Source of the DNA: a virus
Lineage: Duplodnaviria; Heunggongvirae; Uroviricota; Caudoviricetes
DNA length: 44,935 bases
IMG/VR virus record: IMGVR_UViG_643348551_000004
Reading direction: 5' to 3' (one strand)
The position numbers and the translations under genes are program-made. Position 1 is the first letter of the stretch. Every line of letters begins with the position of its first letter. Positions 1,165-14,554 of the stretch are shown piece by piece. Under the pieces are notes generated by a model. The model ran no database searches. It was given only the letters and a program-made list of their open reading frames with translations, and was not told the origin of the DNA.

Positions 1165-1391
1165 TTTCTTTCCTCTGTTATGCCATCACCCGCGCTCACC
1201 TTGATAGTATGCAGCGGAGACTGAAGCGCCGCAATGCAGGCTTGTCGCGTTGTGAGGTAAGGAGATTTTGGTTTAGTGGGGTCTTTGCGTGTTGCCTGTA
1301 GGCGGCCTGTTCGTATCCAGTTGGTAGCGGTAGGTCTGGATATCTTGAGAAACTGACAGGCCTCATCGAGTGTGAGGCTGTATGATTCCAT
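1020..1391 (-). CDS. xis: Excisionase, AlpA-like HTH; 3' extent uncertain
   Basis: ATG at 1391 preceded by GAGGT RBS; N-terminus [31 protein letters not shown] is an excisionase-type HTH; frame stays open to 1020, overlapping int by 145 bp. Confidence 0.6.
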
Positions 1392-1641
1392 GGTTACCTC
1401 TGCTTTTTGAACGCATGTCACGTAACTTCTTAATGTGTTCTGCCGTTTCGATCTCTTCTGCTATCCGATCTGCATCAGCTTTATTCACAGGTTCAAAGTC
1501 ATGATTAAAGCGGAACATGCTGGCGATACATGTTCTGCCTTTTCGGATGTAGTGAACTTTGTTGTGGGTAGAACGCAGGATTTTGCAGGGAGTGCCGTGG
1601 TGGTCGACGTACCAGGTGTTAGGAAAAATGATTCTGAACAT
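1363..1641 (-). CDS. Hypothetical small phage protein (92 aa)
   Basis: ATG at 1641 with strong GAGGTG RBS 5 nt upstream; in the int-proximal early-left operon; no recognisable motif. Confidence 0.45.
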   Translation of the reverse strand: MFRIIFPNTWYVDHHGTPCKILRSTHNKVHYIRKGRTCIASMFRFNHDFEPVNKADADRIAEEIETAEHIKKLRDMRSKSRGNHGIIQPHTR

Positions 1642-1906
1642 TTTTACACCTCAATTGGACGATGTTGAAATTTGCTGCTTTGAGGCCATCACAGTCCCCA
1701 TTGTTTGTTCTTAAGTTCGATCTCCTCCTGCAACTTGCACAAGTCCGACAACCCTGAACGGCCAGGCGTCTTCGTTCATCTATCGGATCGCCACACTCAC
1801 AACAATGAGTGGCAGATATAGCCTGGTGGTTCAGACGACGCATTTTTATTGCTGTATTGCGCTGTAATTCTTCGATTTCTGATGCTGAATCAATGATGTC
1901 TGCCAT
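1619..1906 (-). CDS. TraR/DksA-family C4 zinc-finger protein
   Basis: CxxC...CxxC pattern (CCECGDPIDERRRLAVQGCRTCASC) typical of phage/plasmid TraR-like proteins; start is 6 nt after the stop of a possible upstream micro-ORF. Confidence 0.55.
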   Translation of the reverse strand: MADIIDSASEIEELQRNTAIKMRRLNHQAISATHCCECGDPIDERRRLAVQGCRTCASCRRRSNLRTNNGDCDGLKAANFNIVQLRCKNVQNHFS

Positions 1907-2274
1907 CTTCCATTAATCTCTGAATTGTTGGTTAATACGCTTGAGGGTGAATGCGAATAATAAAAAAGGAGCCTGTAGCTCCCTGATGATTTTGCTTTTC
2001 ATGTTCATCGCTCCTTAAAGATGCCGTTTAACATGCCGATCGCCAGGCTTAAATGAGTCGGTGTGAATCCCTCAGCGTTACCGTTTCGCGGTGCTTCTTC
2101 AGTACGCTACGGCAAATGTTATTGATGCTCCTGTCTGGTGACAGCCATCGGGCTTGTATTATGTATAAGTTCTGATAAAAGCCTCCGATATATTAAATTT
2201 AAATAACGAAATTCATCTTCTTGATAAGTTGTGATAGCATCATTAAAAGTTTCAGTTCGTTGAGCAGGGATTAC

Positions 2275-2853
2275 ATGGTAAATCAGCAACAGCAACAGAT
2301 TAACGAAAATCTAAAAATTGAGGCAATCCGTTGGTATCAGAAGCTGCAGGAGATTACTTATCTTGAAGCAGGACAACACATGCGGGCTTTAAATCAGCTC
2401 ATGTGGCAAATCCCTAGTTTCGTAATTGCTGTCAATGGTGGGTTGTGGTATGCAACAACACTGGCAAATGAAAGTTCCCTATGGATTATCTTTGCAGTGT
2501 TAGCATTGTTTGATTTCACAACAATGATTACACTTTATCGCTTAAGGTCTTTAATTGGTTCGAAAATAGCACTACAAAAAAACATTGAAGATCCTTCAAA
2601 AAACTATATTTTAAATGAAATTACTAGAGACGCTGGATTTAAATTGCCCTCTAGCTATGATAATAAGGAAACTGGTTACATAGTAGTGTCGTGCTGGGCA
2701 GTAATGCTTATTGTTTGCTTCTTTGTTAATATTGCTGGAGTATATCATCCAAACTTGTTTTCAAAAGACATTTCACATAATACATACAAAGCAACAATTA
2801 AAAATATTGAGTCAGGATTATTTATCGAAGCAAAATCAGGATTATCAAAGTGA
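2275..2853 (+). CDS. Small integral membrane protein, about 3 predicted TM helices
   Basis: ATG at 2275 preceded by AGGGA; hydrophobic segments IPSFVIAVNGGLWYATTL, LWIIFAVLALFDFTTMITLY, GYIVVSCWAVMLIVCFFVNIAGV; AT-rich; opposite strand to the flanking early operon; a TTG at 2221 is an alternative start. Confidence 0.5.
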   Translation: MVNQQQQQINENLKIEAIRWYQKLQEITYLEAGQHMRALNQLMWQIPSFVIAVNGGLWYATTLANESSLWIIFAVLALFDFTTMITLYRLRSLIGSKIALQKNIEDPSKNYILNEITRDAGFKLPSSYDNKETGYIVVSCWAVMLIVCFFVNIAGVYHPNLFSKDISHNTYKATIKNIESGLFIEAKSGLSK

Positions 2854-3452
2854 CTTCGTGGAAGTTTTATGACAATAATGCTGATCGCTTATTTGCCGAT
2901 TATATATCACTTGATTTTTACTCTATCTTTCAGGATGTTGAAGAGTTTATTTTACAATCTAAGGGTGTCTCTTTGGATGTCGGTTCAGGTTCCGGCCGTG
3001 ATGCTGCTGCGTTAGATGAATTAGGTTATAAAGTAATAGCTGTTGAACCAAGTGAAAAGATGCGAAATTTGGCATCTTCATATTATAAATCTAACCATAT
3101 TATATGGTTAGATGATTCATTGCCTTTTCTTCATAGTGTTAAAGCAATGAATCTAAAGTTCGACCTTATTTTAGTCAGTGCTGTATGGATGCATCTTTCA
3201 AAAAAAGAGCAAAAAATCTCACTAGAGACGCTAACTGATCTTTTAACATTGAATGGGAGAATGATAATTACATTGCGCTTAGGACCTCCCGAACCAGATA
3301 GAAACATTAACGTTGTTAATACTGAGGAACTTCTTGAGTTAGCGTCTCAGTTAGGTCTGAAAACATTGCGAGTTACGTCAATAAATAAAGATAGTTTTCA
3401 ACGTAACCAGATAACTTGGCAGAAAGTTGTATTATCAAAAAATAATGAGTAA
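2850..3452 (+). CDS. Class I SAM-dependent methyltransferase, small-molecule (TehB-like) type
   Basis: Motif I LDVGSGSGRDAAAL and post-I acidic residue; about 200 aa with no DNA-MTase DPPY/target-recognition features; GTG start overlaps the upstream stop (GTGA). Confidence 0.6.
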   Translation: MTSWKFYDNNADRLFADYISLDFYSIFQDVEEFILQSKGVSLDVGSGSGRDAAALDELGYKVIAVEPSEKMRNLASSYYKSNHIIWLDDSLPFLHSVKAMNLKFDLILVSAVWMHLSKKEQKISLETLTDLLTLNGRMIITLRLGPPEPDRNINVVNTEELLELASQLGLKTLRVTSINKDSFQRNQITWQKVVLSKNNE

Positions 3453-3463
3453 ATAACTTAGTA

Positions 3464-4708
3464 TTATTCGCACAGACCGTAGCGTGAAGAGCAAACCTCT
3501 ATATCGAGACTTGCTTTTACAAGATCGTAGACCTTGCCACCGCGCCCTGTTTTTGCCCACTCTACGACTTCATAAACACCCGGAGAATTAAGATCTCCAC
3601 GAGGACCATAAAATCCTGACCAGTCGATGTGTTGCACATCAGGTTTTAGCCCAAAAAGTTGAATATTTCGACCAAGTGGCAGATTGAACTGTTTCATCCA
3701 GCGTTGGCTTATCTCTCCTACGCTCATCCAGTGTACCCATCTACTAGCAAGGCGTACCTTCAACTCCCATTGTTTGTGCTTTTTGATGTGCTCTGGCCAG
3801 CGCGCAGCCGTCTCTGCAATTTCCTCTTTGTTGCATAGCACGCAATTCATGCAGCCAACACGAGACGCACCTTGCATATAAAGTGGATTTGGCTTAATTC
3901 CGAAATATTTGTGAACTGCGAATACGTCCTCAGCCGTCCATTTGTGGAGCGGCAGGAAGTTGTAGAGAAAATCGGCGTCGCGCATATCGCGGGAAAACCT
4001 CTCATATCCAGCGCGCTTAGAGGACTCATCCGCGCGAACACCAGACCATTGTACGATAACATCGCCAGCATCAAGGAGCGGCTTTATGGCTGCGTCGAAA
4101 GCTATCTGAATTTTCAGTTCGTCTGTACAGAATCGGTCGCGCAGCATAGGGAACTTGCCATGCAGAAGGGAGCAATCCAAAAAGCTATTACCGGATGGGT
4201 GCATAACGGAAAGCGCAGCATCAAGAGCAGTTTCGAACTCAATTCCCCAGCGTTCTGCTGTGCGCTTCCAGGCTTGCCCGAATTTGGTGTCAGAACGTGC
4301 GAGGGAAGGCATGACTATGCCACGGTATGCTCCCATGCGGATCATCTGTCGTTTAGACCAGTTTTTTTGCAGATAAATTCGTCGTTTGGCAAAATCTTCT
4401 TCAGTGTAAATCCGCTTCACAACCTGCACAGGGCTACAACCGATCTGCTCATGAATGCTCCTGGCGAATTCGACAGTTAGATTATGCTCATTATCCGTGT
4501 CTGCCATAACAGCATGTACCTGTTTGCCGAATAATGTGTGCGCCACTGCGAGTGTGGCAGTGCTGTCTTTTCCTGCTGAATAATTCACGATTATCTTATG
4601 ATCATTAGGGATGCGAAATTCATTTATATATCTGTTGTAGGACTCTTCTATTTCGCGAATTTTCTTGCTGATGTCTGTTGGGACAATAATTATTGCTGCC
4701 TCGTTCAT
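3464..4708 (-). CDS. PAPS reductase / PP-loop ATP pyrophosphatase family protein (DndC-like fold)
   Basis: 414-aa ORF with N-terminal PP-loop NYSAGKDS; GGGAGG RBS; start overlaps the stop of the upstream small ORF (ATGA). Confidence 0.7.
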   Translation of the reverse strand: MNEAAIIIVPTDISKKIREIEESYNRYINEFRIPNDHKIIVNYSAGKDSTATLAVAHTLFGKQVHAVMADTDNEHNLTVEFARSIHEQIGCSPVQVVKRIYTEEDFAKRRIYLQKNWSKRQMIRMGAYRGIVMPSLARSDTKFGQAWKRTAERWGIEFETALDAALSVMHPSGNSFLDCSLLHGKFPMLRDRFCTDELKIQIAFDAAIKPLLDAGDVIVQWSGVRADESSKRAGYERFSRDMRDADFLYNFLPLHKWTAEDVFAVHKYFGIKPNPLYMQGASRVGCMNCVLCNKEEIAETAARWPEHIKKHKQWELKVRLASRWVHWMSVGEISQRWMKQFNLPLGRNIQLFGLKPDVQHIDWSGFYGPRGDLNSPGVYEVVEWAKTGRGGKVYDLVKASLDIEVCSSRYGLCE

Positions 4709-4863
4709 ACCGCCTCCCGTTTATTATTTATCTCCTCAGCCAGCCGCTGGGCTTTCAGCGGATTTCGGATAACAGAAAGCCCGGGAAATACCCAGCCTCG
4801 CTTTGTAACGGAGTAGACGAAAGTGATCGCGCCTACCCGGATATTATCGTGAGGATGCGTCAT
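4705..4863 (-). CDS. Small ORF downstream of exo (52 aa), in the position of lambda orf60a
   Basis: ATG overlaps the exo stop (ATGA) and its own stop overlaps the next start (ATGA), suggesting translational coupling; below the ORF-track length cutoff, translated by hand. Confidence 0.35.
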
Positions 4864-5540
4864 CGCCATTGCTCCCCAAATACAAAACCAATTTCAGCCA
4901 GTGCCTCGTCCATTTTTTCGATGAACTCCGGCACCATCTCGTCAAAACTCGCCATATACTTTTCATTCCGCTCAATCACGACATAATGCAGGCCTTCACG
5001 CTTCATGCGCGGGTCATAGTTGGCAAAGTACCAGGCATCTTTTCGCGTCACCCACATGCTGTACTGCACCTGGGCCATGTAAGCCGACTTTATGGCCTCG
5101 AAACCACCGAGCCGGAACTTCATGAAATCCCGGGAGGTAAACGGGCATTTCAGCTCAAGGCCATTGCCGTCACTGCATAAACCATCGGGAGAGCAGGCGG
5201 TGCGCATACTTTCGTCGCGATAGATGATCGGGGATTCAGTAACATTCACGCCGGAAGTGAATTCAAACAGAGTTCTGGCGTCGTTCTCGTACTGTTTTCC
5301 CCATGCCAGCGCCTTAGCATTAACTTCCGGAGCCACACCGGTGCAAACCTCAGCCAGCAGGGTGTGGAAGTAGGACATTTTCATGTCAGGCCACTTCTTT
5401 CCTGAGCGGGGCTTTGCTATCACGTTGTGAACTTCTGAAGCGGTGATGACGCCGAGCCGTAATTTGTGCCATGCATCATCCCCCTGTTCGACAGCTCTCA
5501 CGTCGATCCCGGTACGCTGCAGGATAATGTCCGGTGTCAT
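4860..5540 (-). CDS. exo: Lambda-type 5'-3' exonuclease (Red-alpha)
   Basis: 226 aa, recalled as near-identical to lambda Exo ([39 protein letters not shown]...). Confidence 0.95.
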
Positions 5541-6322
5541 GCTGCCACCTTCTGCTCAGTGGCTTTCTGTTTCAGGAATCCAAGAGCTTTTACTGCTTCG
5601 GCCTGTGTCAGTTCTGACGATGCGCGAATGTCGCGGCGAAATATCTGGGAACAGAGCGGCAATAAGTCGTCATCCCATGTTTTGTCCAGGGCAATCAGCA
5701 GAGTGTTAATCTCCTGCATGGTTTCATCGTTAACCGGAGTGATGTCGCGTTCCGGCTGGCGTTCTGCAGTGTATGCGGTATTTTCGACAATGCGCTCGGC
5801 TTCATCCTTGTCATAGATACCAGCAAATCCGAAGGCCAGACGGGCACACTGAATCATGGCTTTATGCCGTAACATCCGTTTGGGATGCGACTGCCACGGC
5901 CCCGTGATTTCTCTGCCTTCGCGGGTTTTGAATGGTTCGCGGCGGCATTCATCCATCCATTCGGTAACGCAGATCGGATGATTACGGTCCTTGCGGTAAA
6001 TCCGGCATGTACAGGATTCGTTGTCCTGCTCAAAGTCCATGCCATCAAACTGCTGGTTTTCATTGATGATGCGGGACCAGCCATCAACGCCCACCACCGG
6101 AACGATGCCGTTCTGCTTATCAGGGAAGGCGTAAATTTCTTTCGTCCACGGATTAAGGCCGTACTGGTTGGCGACGATCAGCAATGCGATGAACTGCGCA
6201 TCGCTGGCATCGCCTTTAAATGCCGTCTGGCGAAGAGTGGTGATCAGTTCCTGTGGGTCGACAGAATCCATGCCGACACGTTCAGCCAGCTTCCCAGCCA
6301 GCGTTGCGAGTGCTGTACTCAT
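5537..6322 (-). CDS. bet: Lambda-type ssDNA-annealing recombinase (Red-beta)
   Basis: 261 aa, recalled as near-identical to lambda Bet; overlaps exo start by 4 nt. Confidence 0.95.
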
Positions 6323-7455: not shown

Positions 7456-7899
7456 TTAAGCACTAAAGAAAAAGTACATTGATAGCTTATAAAGTCCTGT
7501 TCCTGCAGCGATGATTGCTGGAACACCAAGCAATACCGCAAGCTTTGCGTCTGAAATCTTTCTATCGACAGCATCACTTGATGGCTTGTTTGTTAAGGAT
7601 TCTTTTATAGAGTCCAGACGTGCAAGAATAGTTATCATATTTTTGTCGATAGCTTTAACGTCTGTTTTAAGTTCATCAACGTCTCGTTTGATATGAGCAA
7701 CATCGGACTCCAGTTTTGCAACTTTTTCAGGCATGTTATCACTCCCAGACCCACTGCTACCACTTGATTGTAGCATGTCCCATCTTTTTCCAGATATACC
7801 TGCTAGCTGGGAAGACGCACTGGAGTGCAAACAAAATGATTCTGCCGCCTTTGCAATTTTATCATTTAGGTTTGGAGCTTCGTAATAATCGTGTTTCAT
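7456..7899 (-). CDS. Hypothetical 147-aa protein: coiled-coil plus single C-terminal TM helix
   Basis: ATG at 7899; Ser/Gly linker; heptad-like KVAKLESDVAHIKRDVDELKTDVKAIDKNMITILARLDSIKESL; hydrophobic tail LAVLLGVPAIIAAGTGLYKLSMYFFFSA; AT-rich. Confidence 0.55.
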   Translation of the reverse strand: MKHDYYEAPNLNDKIAKAAESFCLHSSASSQLAGISGKRWDMLQSSGSSGSGSDNMPEKVAKLESDVAHIKRDVDELKTDVKAIDKNMITILARLDSIKESLTNKPSSDAVDRKISDAKLAVLLGVPAIIAAGTGLYKLSMYFFFSA

Positions 7900-11572: not shown

Positions 11573-11871
11573 CGGGCAAAGAGGCAATTATTCATTACCT
11601 GGGGACGCATAAGAGCTTCTGTGCACAGGACGTTGCCGCGGTAACAGGCGCAACCGTAACCAGCATAAATCAGGCTGCGGCTAAAATGGCGCGGGCAGGA
11701 ATCCTGGTCGTTGATGGTAAGGTCTGGCGAACGGTGTATTACCGGTTCGCTACCAGAGAAGAACGGGAAGGAAAGGTGAGCACGAATCTGATTTTTAAGG
11801 AGTGTCGCCAGAGTGCCGCGATGAAACGCGTATTGAGGGTATATAAAAGAACATCAATGGGTACACAATGA
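11569..11871 (+). CDS. ren: Ren (Rex-exclusion resistance) protein
   Basis: MTGKEAIIHYLGTH... recalled as lambda Ren; overlaps the P stop. Confidence 0.85.
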   Translation: MTGKEAIIHYLGTHKSFCAQDVAAVTGATVTSINQAAAKMARAGILVVDGKVWRTVYYRFATREEREGKVSTNLIFKECRQSAAMKRVLRVYKRTSMGTQ

Positions 11872-11938
11872 TGAAACAGGTGAGTTGATTTCAAACTGTA
11901 GTACAATTCTCTCCAGTTTGAACAGGAAAGAATATGCT

Positions 11939-12271
11939 ATGAACCCTTATATTTATCTTGGTGGTGCAATACTTGCAGAGGTCATTGGTACAACCTTAAT
12001 GAAGTTTTCAGAAGGTTTTACACGGTTATGGCCATCTGTTGGTACAATTATCTGTTATTGTGCATCATTCTGGTTATTAGCTCAGACGCTGGCTTATATT
12101 CCTACAGGGATTGCTTATGCTATCTGGTCAGGAGTCGGTATTGTCCTGATTAGCTTACTGTCATGGGGATTTTTCGGCCAACGGCTGGACCTGCCAGCCA
12201 TTATAGGCATGATGTTGATTTGTGCCGGTGTGTTGGTTATTAATTTATTGTCACGAAGCACACCACATTAA
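11939..12271 (+). CDS. emrE: SMR-family multidrug efflux protein EmrE
   Basis: 110 aa, MNPYIYLGGAILAEVIGTTLMKFSEGF... recalled as E. coli EmrE (a DLP12 prophage gene). Confidence 0.9.
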   Translation: MNPYIYLGGAILAEVIGTTLMKFSEGFTRLWPSVGTIICYCASFWLLAQTLAYIPTGIAYAIWSGVGIVLISLLSWGFFGQRLDLPAIIGMMLICAGVLVINLLSRSTPH

Positions 12272-12302
12272 AAATAATTTGTTTCTAAACGACTAAAATA
12301 TG

Positions 12303-12345
12303 GAGGCTCTTATATTTATATGAGCCTCGTTTTATGCTTTTTGTT
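12303..12345 (+). terminator. Rho-independent terminator after emrE
   Basis: Hairpin GAGGCTC-loop-GAGCCTC followed by GTTTTATGCTTTTT. Confidence 0.5.
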
Positions 12346-12527
12346 AATGTCTTTATTTTTTTATGTATTCTTTTGTGCTTTCAAGATTATGGCGTAAGAA
12401 AATTGCAATACGATTATTGTTGTATATTCAAGATAATGTGACCTTAATTGTCTTTTTAAATAAAAATTAAACAAAAATTATATCTCACCACTAAGGTTTA
12501 TAAAAGCATACGTTAGCAGGTGTCACC

Positions 12528-14054
12528 ATGAAAAAAGCCATAGCATATATGCGATTTTCATCACCAGGTCAGATGTCTGGCGACTCATTAAACCGACAGA
12601 GAAGACTTATTGCTGAATGGTTAAAGGTAAATAGTGATTATTATCTTGATACCATAACATATGAAGATTTAGGATTAAGTGCATTCAAAGGAAAGCATGC
12701 ACAATCAGGAGCTTTTTCGGAATTTTTAGATGCTATAGAGCATGGTTATATATTGCCAGGAACTACATTGTTAGTTGAAAGTCTGGACAGACTTTCAAGA
12801 GAAAAAGTCGGTGAAGCGATTGAGCGTCTGAAATTGATTTTGAATCACGGTATTGATGTTATAACTCTTTGCGATAATACAGTCTATAATATTGACTCTT
12901 TGAATGATCCATATTCATTAATAAAAGCCATACTTATAGCACAAAGGGCAAATGAAGAAAGCGAGATAAAGTCAAGTCGGGTTAAATTATCATGGAAGAA
13001 AAAACGGCAGGATGCACTGGAGTCAGGCACGATTATGACGGCGTCTTGTCCGAGATGGCTCTCCTTAGATGACAAAAGAACGGCTTTTGTTCCAGACCCC
13101 GACAGGGTGAAAACTATTGAGCTAATTTTTAAACTCAGGATGGAAAGGCGCTCATTGAATGCAATAGCCAAGTATTTAAATGATCATGCTGTAAAGAATT
13201 TCTCAGGAAAAGAAAGTGCATGGGGACCTTCTGTAATTGAAAAATTATTAGCGAATAAAGCTCTGATAGGTATATGCGTACCTTCATATCGTGCAAGAGG
13301 TAAAGGAATAAGTGAAATCGCTGGCTATTATCCCAGAGTCATATCAGATGATTTGTTTTACGCTGTGCAGGAAATTCGGTTGGCACCTTTTGGTATTAGC
13401 AATAGTAGCAAAAACCCTATGTTGATAAATCTACTTCGAACAGTTATGAAGTGCGAGGCTTGTGGTAATACCATGATTGTTCATGCGGTATCTGGAAGTT
13501 TGCATGGCTATTATGTTTGTCCGATGAGAAGACTGCATCGATGTGACAGGCCATCAATAAAGAGAGATTTGGTTGATTATAATATCATTAATGAGTTGCT
13601 TTTTAATTGTAGTAAAATCCAACCAGTTGAAAACAAGAAAGATGCTAATGAAACTTTAGAGTTGAAAATTATTGAGCTCCAGATGAAAATTAATAATTTA
13701 ATTGCTGCATTATCTGTTGCGCCTGAAGTTACCGCTATAGCAGAAAAAATCAGAGTATTAGATAAGGAATTACGAAGGGCTTCTGTATCATTAAAAACTT
13801 TGAAGAGTAAAGCGGTGAGCTCACTTGGTGATTTTCATGCTATTGACTTAACCAGTAAAAATGGGCGAGAGCTATGTCGTACACTTGCCTATAAAACATT
13901 CGAAAAAATCATAATCAATACAGATAATAAAACCTGTGATATCTATTTTATGAATGGCATTGTTTTTAAACACTATCCTTTAATGAAAACAATATCCGCC
14001 CAGCAGGCGATAAGTACTCTCAAATATATGGTTGATGGTGAGGTTTATTTTTGA
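12528..14054 (+). CDS. ybcK: Large serine recombinase (resolvase-type N-terminal domain, recombinase domain, Cys-rich zinc ribbon)
   Basis: 508 aa; N-terminal AYMRFSSPGQ catalytic-serine motif; Cys cluster CEACGN...CPMRRLHRC; AT-rich; recalled as DLP12 YbcK. Confidence 0.85.
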   Translation: MKKAIAYMRFSSPGQMSGDSLNRQRRLIAEWLKVNSDYYLDTITYEDLGLSAFKGKHAQSGAFSEFLDAIEHGYILPGTTLLVESLDRLSREKVGEAIERLKLILNHGIDVITLCDNTVYNIDSLNDPYSLIKAILIAQRANEESEIKSSRVKLSWKKKRQDALESGTIMTASCPRWLSLDDKRTAFVPDPDRVKTIELIFKLRMERRSLNAIAKYLNDHAVKNFSGKESAWGPSVIEKLLANKALIGICVPSYRARGKGISEIAGYYPRVISDDLFYAVQEIRLAPFGISNSSKNPMLINLLRTVMKCEACGNTMIVHAVSGSLHGYYVCPMRRLHRCDRPSIKRDLVDYNIINELLFNCSKIQPVENKKDANETLELKIIELQMKINNLIAALSVAPEVTAIAEKIRVLDKELRRASVSLKTLKSKAVSSLGDFHAIDLTSKNGRELCRTLAYKTFEKIIINTDNKTCDIYFMNGIVFKHYPLMKTISAQQAISTLKYMVDGEVYF

Positions 14055-14165
14055 GTAATAATCACTTTTTCAACCGTGCTATAGTAAGAAAGTTAGGTAA
14101 GTACAATAAAATTATCTATCCTGAACGAAGCGTCCTGAGCTATGGTTTTACTATAGGGACTGCCA

Positions 14166-14495
14166 ATGGATGCTGGCGTTCTCGTTCTAGCAGTTCAACA
14201 ATCCCCAATCACAAAACAATTCACTGATAACGAACTTTGCACACTCGCCTGGTTATGGCGAGCAGGGAATGTGATGTTAATTGCCTACCAGAACGTTACT
14301 CATCTTCTTCAGGATGCGGAGCATGGTGAAGCTGGTCACTTCACTTCCATCGAGCAAGAATATCCCCAGATACTCAACAGAGCGCGAGCAATCCTCGTCC
14401 GAGAAACGGCACATGTAAAACTTCAGCCGTGGCAGGATGATAAGTGGAGTCGAGTATTGCCACATTTGCGTCAGAATGTTATTAAACAACGTTAG
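14166..14495 (+). CDS. Hypothetical protein (109 aa)
   Basis: ATG with AGGGA RBS; nin-region position; no recognisable motif. Confidence 0.5.
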   Translation: MDAGVLVLAVQQSPITKQFTDNELCTLAWLWRAGNVMLIAYQNVTHLLQDAEHGEAGHFTSIEQEYPQILNRARAILVRETAHVKLQPWQDDKWSRVLPHLRQNVIKQR

Positions 14496-14554
14496 CTACT
14501 GTGTCTCTCCAATTTAGCTAACATATGGATTCATAAGAAAAAGGAGCTTTTGCC

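Follow-up and report, generated by a model that had tools for sequence, protein, structure and literature searches.

The window analysed here is a 44,935-nucleotide stretch of DNA from a virus of the Caudoviricetes (IMG/VR record IMGVR_UViG_643348551_000004). It is a lambdoid prophage, read starting at its integrase end, and features on the plus strand a pair of overlapping genes, A and B, which encode a three-helix membrane protein and a class I S-adenosylmethionine (SAM)-dependent methyltransferase. Together with the convergent gene c8, which encodes a protein of the 3′-phosphoadenosine 5′-phosphosulfate (PAPS) reductase family, the pair makes up a replaceable cassette of 2.6 kb. A and B also occur as natural fusions, the pair is linked with three sulfurtransferase lineages (DndC, SspD, and c8), and the cassette is enriched in Escherichia coli hosts that carry the Dnd phosphorothioation system. 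We hold with moderate confidence that A–B is a membrane-tethered methyltransferase accessory to PP-loop sulfurtransferase systems, that is, to DNA phosphorothioation, and that the phage cassette serves life in Dnd-positive hosts.

Genomic context of the A–B family

Outside phages, the pair is found in or beside phosphorothioation gene clusters. Of the 18 non-enterobacterial genome loci, 15 have dndB, dndC, dndD, or dndE no farther than 10 kb away, in many cases on the strand of A–B, and some form one operon with it. The Moraxellaceae locus (L021) features one same-strand run of dndBCDE, A, and B, in which A–B comes just after dndE. In Neorhizobium (L024), dndB overlaps an A–B fusion gene by its start/stop codons, and in Nostoc (L027), the order is fusion–dndBCD–dndA. 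The Ssp system is represented by two loci from Chitinimonas and Methylotenera (L015 and L016), which adjoin SspB, SspC, and SspD, recognized with E-values from 1e-110 down to 0; metagenome contigs show both the Dnd and the Ssp association. A locus of Klebsiella pneumoniae (L031, 7001–14573) consists of an AbiE pair, followed by A–B, a c8 remnant of 120 aa on the strand opposite to A–B (E 5e-18), and dptFGH. What Dnd, Ssp, and the phage cassette share is a PAPS-reductase-type PP-loop enzyme. After dereplication at 90% identity, 45 groups of loci have usable flanks and are hence informative, and a Dnd, Ssp, or c8 neighbor is present in 38 of them. Judged by gene neighborhood, A–B belongs to the context of DNA phosphorothioation and not to that of resistance against tellurite or xenobiotics. 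In E. coli EC-1639, the spot upstream of dptF that is equivalent to the A–B site of K. pneumoniae carries two helix-turn-helix (HTH) genes.

The original prediction described A and B as two overlapping plus-strand genes with a GTGA junction. This junction is real, as the TGA stop codon of gene A (2851–2853) overlaps the GTG start codon of gene B (2850–2852), and B is translationally coupled to A via this overlap. Among the loci examined, B follows in every one that has a full-length A, adjacent to it and usually overlapping. In Alphaproteobacteria and Nostoc, both are fused into single proteins of 338 to 391 aa that keep all three helices of A. The adjacency in all full-length loci and the natural fusions indicate that A and B act together as one functional unit.

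The three-gene cassette

The borders of the cassette are defined by comparison with related lambdoid phages, which lack it; one of them, ev243, matches the window at 1–2125 (98%) and 4697–6300 (97%) and has 350 bp where the window has 2571 bp. The left edge interrupts a ZapA-like gene remnant—the homology to ev243 stops within this open reading frame (ORF). A megablast search with 1300–4800 returned 213 phage records, of which phi458 is the only one to cover the middle. The only DNA common to the window and prophages of Enterobacter ludwigii and Enterobacter soli is the segment 2262/2209–4764, which comprises A–B, c8, and DUF1317 at 68 to 71% identity; the flanking prophage DNA is unrelated. 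On the protein level, the Enterobacter prophages are 57 to 67% identical in A, 61 to 64% in B, and 77 to 83% in c8. By these comparisons, A, B, and c8 have diverged together across prophages.

The arrangement of A–B followed by convergent c8 is kept in 18 of 19 IMG/VR loci encoding A, down to 39% identity in A, and among 5426 complete E. coli genomes, c8 and A–B are confined to one identical set of 28. What had been described as a moron of two genes is, hence, a three-gene cassette with a convergent, DndC/SspD-like third member. The view of c8 as a widespread lambdoid gene, beside which a moron had landed, was rejected because c8 is confined to the same 28 genomes as A–B and occurs at close identity in a single phage record (phi458) out of 50,697.

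The plus-strand pair interrupts a series of minus-strand genes, as predicted: int, the DUF4222 gene, the DksA-like gene, the PAPS-reductase-like c8, DUF1317, exo, and bet are all encoded on the minus strand. The pronounced AT-richness of the pair is confirmed by a windowed comparison as well. Genes A and B together have a GC content of 34.7% compared with 50.8% for the whole window and form its lowest-GC stretch; only 0.3% of all sliding 1.2-kb windows are as GC-poor. The features of this region are collected in Table 1.

Table 1. Coordinates of the cassette and of neighboring features in the window
Feature	Position	Strand	Basis or remark
Replaceable cassette (gene A, gene B, convergent c8)	2126–4696		Comparison with ev243; 2571 bp (2.6 kb)
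Candidate promoter: −35 TTCATC (2212–2217), 17-nt spacer, extended −10 TG-n-TAGCAT (2232–2240)	2212–2240	+	Conserved with the E. soli cassette
Gene A, 192-aa membrane protein without known family	2275–2853	+	Conserved Shine–Dalgarno sequence and ATG, annotation, three hydrophobic helices
Gene B, 200-aa class I SAM-dependent methyltransferase	2850–3452	+	Pfam Methyltransf_11, 25, 23, and 12; start GTG 2850
Motif I (SAM-binding loop) LDVGSGSGRD, residues 42–51 of B	2973–3002	+	Translation; D, G, G, G, R, D invariant in 40 homologues
c8, 414-aa PP-loop PAPS-reductase-family protein, convergent with B	3464–4708	−	Pfam PAPS_reduct; PADLOC SspD, BrxP, and DndC matches
int	1–1164	−	
Frameshifted phage-gene remnant, annotated ZapA-like	2005–2189	−	RefSeq annotation, identical region in FORC_041

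Association with Dnd-positive hosts

The distribution of the cassette in E. coli was related to Dnd by two chimeric-query searches of the 5426 records. Both dptG and dndC are carried by 20 of the 28 cassette-bearing records, compared with dptG in 194 of the 5398 other records. This corresponds to an odds ratio of 67 (Fisher p 8e-23, uncorrected for phylogeny or clonality). When duplicate strains are counted once, 16 of 23 cassette hosts are Dnd-positive. At least two distinct Dnd islands are represented among the cassette hosts: that of EC-1639 lies at tRNA-Thr/proA and that of FORC_041 at tRNA-Leu.

The methyltransferase B

Gene B encodes the 200-aa class I SAM methyltransferase with the motif LDVGSGSGRD that the original prediction had named. 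It matches Pfam Methyltransf_11 with 38.9 bits (cut-off 21.2) and, in addition, Methyltransf_25, 23, and 12. The predicted structure has a mean predicted local distance difference test (pLDDT) score of 95.9 and features alternating strands and helices; Foldseek aligns it with many class I methyltransferases at a probability of 1.00. Families, motif I, residue E66, and fold, thus, all identify B as a Rossmann-fold enzyme of this class. An alignment of 40 homologues, down to 36% identity, yields the signature DxGxGxGRD, AVEPS, W.DDSLP, SAVWMH after strand 4, and TLRLG, together with several arginines and aromatics. The invariant residues include D43, G45, G47, G49, R50, D51, E66, R143, R151, R185, and W190.

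Features of DNA methyltransferases had been predicted to be absent, and neither a catalytic motif nor a target-recognition domain is found in B. The invariant SAVWMH stands after strand 4 in place of a [DNS]PP[YFW] or cytosine-methylase motif, and a protein of 200 aa without extra domain leaves no room for target recognition. Among the top 50 fold matches in the PDB are small-molecule, tRNA, and protein methyltransferases and not a single DNA methyltransferase. The pair is, hence, not a restriction–modification system, in line with the original prediction.

The membrane protein A

A mechanical ORF listing begins gene A at TTG 2221. The true start is almost certainly ATG 2275, since this codon is preceded by GAGCAGGGA, is the annotated start in RefSeq and GenBank, and is conserved in two Enterobacter prophages. 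The protein features hydrophobic helices at approximately residues 46–63, 66–87, and 136–157, of which the second and third are detected by a Kyte–Doolittle scan; the expected membrane protein with roughly three transmembrane helices is, thus, confirmed. The AlphaFold model is all-helical with a pLDDT of 72.6. No family match was found for protein A in Pfam, PHROGs, NCBIfam, or PADLOC. In the fold comparison, A has no match in the PDB below E = 1.

The A family comprises 68 clusters in a word-indexed search and 226 representatives at 50% identity in an exhaustive search. Its invariant core consists of R37, LNQ.MWQ.P, GGLWY, and R.R. The best-conserved part is the juxtamembrane helix with helices 1 and 2, which reads EAGQHMRALNQLMWQ.P....NGGLWY and is followed by D80 and RLR.LI.

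The membrane domain of A is not always accompanied by the methyltransferase (L042 827–2889, L043 354–1768, P0234, P0280, and L098 9048–12231). Stand-alone A-domain proteins of 145 to 160 aa adjoin HIT/DcpS_C genes, and one of them is directly followed by dndB. In one A-domain protein, the fusion partner is an RNase T-type exonuclease; a second one carries a different N-terminal domain and adjoins dndA. As read from the short contigs on which the shorter A-like proteins lie, these relatives seem to make up a family of enzymes of phosphorothioation loci that are tethered to the membrane and act on nucleotides. In Burkholderia cenocepacia (L013, 1320–1892), the A homologue is uncalled in the public record because the annotated methyltransferase (246 aa) extends too far at its N-terminus; the pair may, hence, be under-reported by automatic annotation elsewhere too.

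The PAPS-reductase-family protein c8

The c8 protein belongs to Pfam PAPS_reduct (PF01507) with an E-value of 7e-21 and 75.5 bits (cut-off 22.5). PADLOC matches it to SspD (6e-19), BrxP (4e-16), and DndC (6e-9). The motifs common to c8, DndC, and SspD are the SGGKDS PP-loop, FCT..LK, and RVGCM.C (GCxxC). A fourth motif, CSS.YG.CE, is found at the C-terminus of c8, and all four are invariant in the c8 family, including Orf84 of phage 186 and gp57 of phiE125. Within the PP-loop, 11 homologues all have S44, G46, K47, D48, and S49, and position 45 is Ala in the window and Gly in most others.

The profile comparisons point to a remote similarity of c8 to DndC, SspD, and BrxP. It scores 32 bits against the DndC model TIGR03183, which has a cut-off of 290, and covers only positions 74–211 of the 277 of the SspD profile; no DndD, DndE, SspB, or SspC is encoded in the window. 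For these reasons, c8 is placed in the wider PAPS-reductase family and is not taken as an orthologue of DndC or SspD.

Transcription of the cassette

The promoter that had been proposed for the pair, TTGATA at 2221–2226 with a −10 element at 2244–2249, fails a consensus scan, and the E. soli copy does not keep its −35 element. The segment 2212–2240 is a better candidate by conservation. It is kept in the E. soli cassette although protein A there is only 57% identical. It falls below threshold in a simple consensus scan, in which no plus-strand promoter upstream of A passed; the comparison, nevertheless, suggests that this segment may act as the promoter of A–B.

The scan revealed no terminator after B on the plus strand nor on either strand between the stop codons of B and c8, which lie 11 bp apart (3452–3464). 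Because of this convergent arrangement without terminator, transcripts from pL would be antisense to B and A, and those of A–B would extend into c8 in the antisense direction.

Proposed function and alternative explanations

We infer an action of the cassette on or against phosphorothioation, and likewise how A lies in the membrane, what B acts on, and when the genes are expressed. The small, three-helix protein A would tether B at the cytoplasmic face of the inner membrane. There, B would methylate an anionic, probably sulfur- or phosphate-bearing, nucleotide-related substrate that the sulfurtransferase reaction either produces or uses; this could be a phosphorothioate or thiophosphate group, a nucleotide intermediate, or a persulfide or sulfide. 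The hint to such a substrate comes from the invariant arginines of B (R50, R143, R151, and R185), its weak kinship with chalcogen-methylating TehB-type enzymes, and the relatives of the A domain, whose association with HIT hydrolases (one beside dndB) or an RNase T-type exonuclease suggests nucleotide or nucleic-acid substrates. A–B would be transcribed from its own promoter, opposite to pL, and c8 would be expressed with the early-left operon. The cassette would, in this way, let the phage live in, or exploit, hosts with the Dnd phosphorothioation restriction system. Its function is most likely counter-defense against, or compatibility with, Dnd and not detoxification.

A more specific and more doubtful version makes B a phosphorothioate-directed S-methyltransferase, tethered to the membrane by A, that methylates the sulfur installed by DndC-, SspD-, or c8-type enzymes. 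The target could be DNA or the phosphorothioate di- or mononucleotides released from such DNA.

Several observations weigh against the accessory function in phosphorothioation. Eight of the 28 cassette hosts lack dndC and dptG, and the host association is uncorrected for the clonality and phylogeny of the strains. Four of the 45 informative groups (L007, L033, L035/L060, and L074), all in the P–nin slot of prophages, are accompanied by nothing but a divergent HTH_73 gene, with phosphorothioation genes absent over 7 to 8 kb, and three more with long flanks (L026, L073, and L043/L098) show no recognizable phosphorothioation neighbor. B-type methyltransferases are also found without A, namely in a metabolic locus of Streptomyces and in a mobile element of Vibrio. 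The order of three membrane helices and then a cytoplasmic methyltransferase in the fusions misfits the positive-inside rule. A–B lies 13 GC points below c8, which indicates different origins of the parts of the cassette. In addition, a 2026 study (PMC12914056) found that a P-loop ATPase is required alongside the PAPS-reductase domain for the synthesis of phosphorothioate, so that a PAPS-reductase protein lacking a partner ATPase of the DndD or SspC type may be unable to make the modification alone.

The main rival explanation is that A–B is a self-contained prophage defense moron, which would exclude superinfecting phages or abort infections through the membrane effector A, with a sensing or modifying role for B, and that it lies beside phosphorothioation genes because defense genes cluster. 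The opposite strand, the AT-richness, and the candidate promoter of its own are shared with many lysogenic-conversion genes, and the neighbors fit as well: NACHT and HATPase_c_3 genes in Klebsiella aerogenes and AbiE in K. pneumoniae. It is kept alive by the prophage copies in which A–B stands alone with an HTH_73 regulator in the P–nin slot. However, clustering in defense islands does not explain why the neighbor in 38 of the 45 informative groups is of one enzyme class (DndC, SspD, or c8), nor the start/stop overlap with dndB in Neorhizobium, the same-strand run after dndE in Moraxellaceae, or the co-transfer with c8 as the sole DNA common to unrelated prophages; moreover, no PADLOC model matches A. 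We, therefore, regard a stand-alone defense moron as unlikely, though it is the strongest of the competing explanations. The three that follow are each less likely than it.

The original prediction had suggested a TehA/TehB-like pair, which would serve the host by methylating a toxic small molecule such as tellurite or selenite. The gene order agrees, a membrane protein and then a methyltransferase, and TehB is, like B, a class I SAM methyltransferase of approximately 200 aa. B exceeds the cut-off of Pfam TehB (PF03848; 23.0 bits, cut-off 20.4), covering only positions 29–113 of the 193 in that profile. The best sequence-profile match in the PDB is a UbiE-like protein of Thermotoga; TehB structures come next with E-values of about 2e-8 to 8e-8, level with many generic enzymes, and are also among the fold matches. 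The part of the suggestion that stands is, hence, that TehB is among the closest solved relatives of B by profile. The similarity is weak, though, and no better than that to generic methyltransferases, as Methyltransf_11 outscores TehB by 39 to 23 bits, and B reaches 24.1, 18.9, and 18.4 bits against the NCBIfam TehB equivalogs, approximately ten-fold below their cut-offs of 303, 218, and 219.5. TehA is a channel protein of roughly 10 helices. Protein A, with 192 aa and three helices, has no detectable relation to it and no match to a transporter family in Pfam or NCBIfam, and none of the approximately 100 loci contains a metal- or metalloid-resistance gene. With the context being phosphorothioation and phage, detoxification of the TehAB type is very unlikely.

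The PADLOC mad2 match of B (E 7e-15, residues 36–198 of B on profile positions 290–446 of 492) and the frequent proximity of phage PAPS reductases to DNA methylases, as in phiE125 gp56/gp57, phage Parlo, and the Vibrio PAPS–Dam fusion, suggest that B could be an unusual DNA methyltransferase, either an orphan or a MADS-like one, which would mark the DNA of phage or host. This view conflicts with the sequence after strand 4, the size of B, and the fold matches described above. The mad2 match as a sign of MADS or DNA methylation was rejected because B lacks the motifs of DNA methyltransferases. The gene hidden Markov models of the MADS preprint were built from HHpred alignments to the PDB, and if the PADLOC model derives from these, it would behave generically and the match would be uninformative. 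MADS comprises eight genes (mad1–mad8), and no other mad gene is present in the window. This explanation is the least probable of all. Hardly more probable is that B modifies a membrane lipid, a quinone, or an envelope precursor in the manner of UbiG, PmtA, or METTL7, thereby altering the cell surface or blocking DNA injection. The membrane tether, conserved polar residues of the A domain in or near the bilayer (N54, D80, W58, and Y59), and weak similarities to UbiG and phosphoethanolamine methyltransferase are in line with it. These similarities are generic, however, and the tight linkage with DndC-, SspD-, or c8-type genes would be left without a reason; in addition, the HIT and exonuclease domains with which relatives of A are paired have nucleotides and not lipids as substrates.

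Relation to known systems

In Vibrio, a phage-encoded fusion of PAPS reductase and Dam methylase gives escape from Dnd (Piel et al., bioRxiv 10.1101/2021.05.05.442762). Similar to the cassette, a phage-borne PAPS-reductase module is joined to a SAM methyltransferase and linked to Dnd hosts; the Vibrio hosts carry dndBCDE–dndFGH, and transfer of the gene let a phage infect a Dnd-positive host. The methylase of the Vibrio protein is, however, a Dam-type DNA adenine methyltransferase on the same polypeptide, whereas B is a separate class I enzyme of non-DNA type with its own membrane partner, encoded convergently with c8. Phage PAPS reductases have been discussed as candidates for anti-defense (PMC13551039).

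The Dnd (dndABCDE) and Ssp (sspABCD) systems are related to the cassette by the A–B homologues in or beside their clusters and by the PP-loop and cysteine motifs shared with c8. They differ in that A and B are not among their described components and in that the prophage has no DndD/E or SspB/C and a c8 far below the DndC cut-off. Methyltransferases near phosphorothioation genes have been noted and treated as possibly independent (PMC12914056). A–B is not mentioned, as judged by keywords in the main text and one supplement, in a comparative-genomic reappraisal of Dnd (PMC10853773). A literature search by protein accessions, by TehB together with dnd, and by two-gene defense systems of a methyltransferase plus a membrane protein yielded no description of the pair.

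Orf84 of phage 186 and gp57 of phiE125 align with c8 end to end at 37 to 41% identity, contain all invariant motifs, and are phage early-region genes as well. In contrast to the window, both phages lack A–B, and the c8 of the window has extra inserts. The PAPS-reductase gene of phage 186 is annotated as non-essential and of unknown function.

The human proteins METTL7A/B (TMT1A/B) feature an N-terminal hydrophobic membrane anchor and a Methyltransf_11-type domain that S-methylates sulfide and thiols. Their likeness to A–B is an analogy of architecture only, and it motivates the hypothesis that B may methylate sulfur.

Other regions of the prophage

A near-identical copy of the prophage in E. 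coli FORC_041 adjoins tRNA-Arg beside fimZ. From the left end of the window, the minus strand encodes int, the DUF4222 gene, the DksA/TraR-like gene, and the frameshifted ZapA-like remnant; to the right of A–B, it resumes with c8, DUF1317, exo, bet, and gam. The stretch from the DksA-like gene to DUF1317/exo (1907–4704) differs among lambdoid phages: Phage SfI (NC_027339, 22590–24363) carries a queuine tRNA-ribosyltransferase-like gene there, compared with the PAPS-reductase cassette in this prophage. This variable slot may be a collector of DNA-modification genes.

The window features a second low-GC island (approximately 36% GC) at 11600–14500 in the P–nin slot. Its cargo consists of an SMR-family small multidrug-resistance transporter (11885–12271, plus strand) and a large serine recombinase (12528–14054, plus strand). 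The same slot is occupied by HTH_73 plus A–B in other prophages (L007, L033, and L035). In the immunity region, an ORF of 147 aa (7456–7899, minus strand) is without a Pfam or PADLOC match. The counterpart in FORC_041 contains a serine/threonine kinase gene and a hypothetical gene of 153 aa instead, so that the immunity region differs between otherwise close prophages.

Biological significance

DNA phosphorothioation is the only natural modification of the DNA backbone known so far, and its accessory functions, as well as the countermeasures of phages, are still poorly understood. The family described here points to a previously undescribed accessory module, in which a three-helix membrane domain and a dedicated SAM methyltransferase—sometimes fused—track DndC, SspD, and a phage PAPS reductase. 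If B were an S-methyltransferase, it would add a second, new chemical step to the phosphorothioation pathway, which could mask, erase, or detoxify the phosphorothioate, and phages would use B with a sulfurtransferase of their own to defeat or exploit Dnd and Ssp immunity. The cassette also provides a link between Dnd-positive hosts and a specific E. coli phage, the inducible phi458, with its relatives. Should the module act in phosphorothioation chemistry or in counter-defense against Dnd, it would provide a three-gene handle in a cultivable phage, which would bear on the role of phage PAPS reductases and on the regulation and evasion of phosphorothioate marks.

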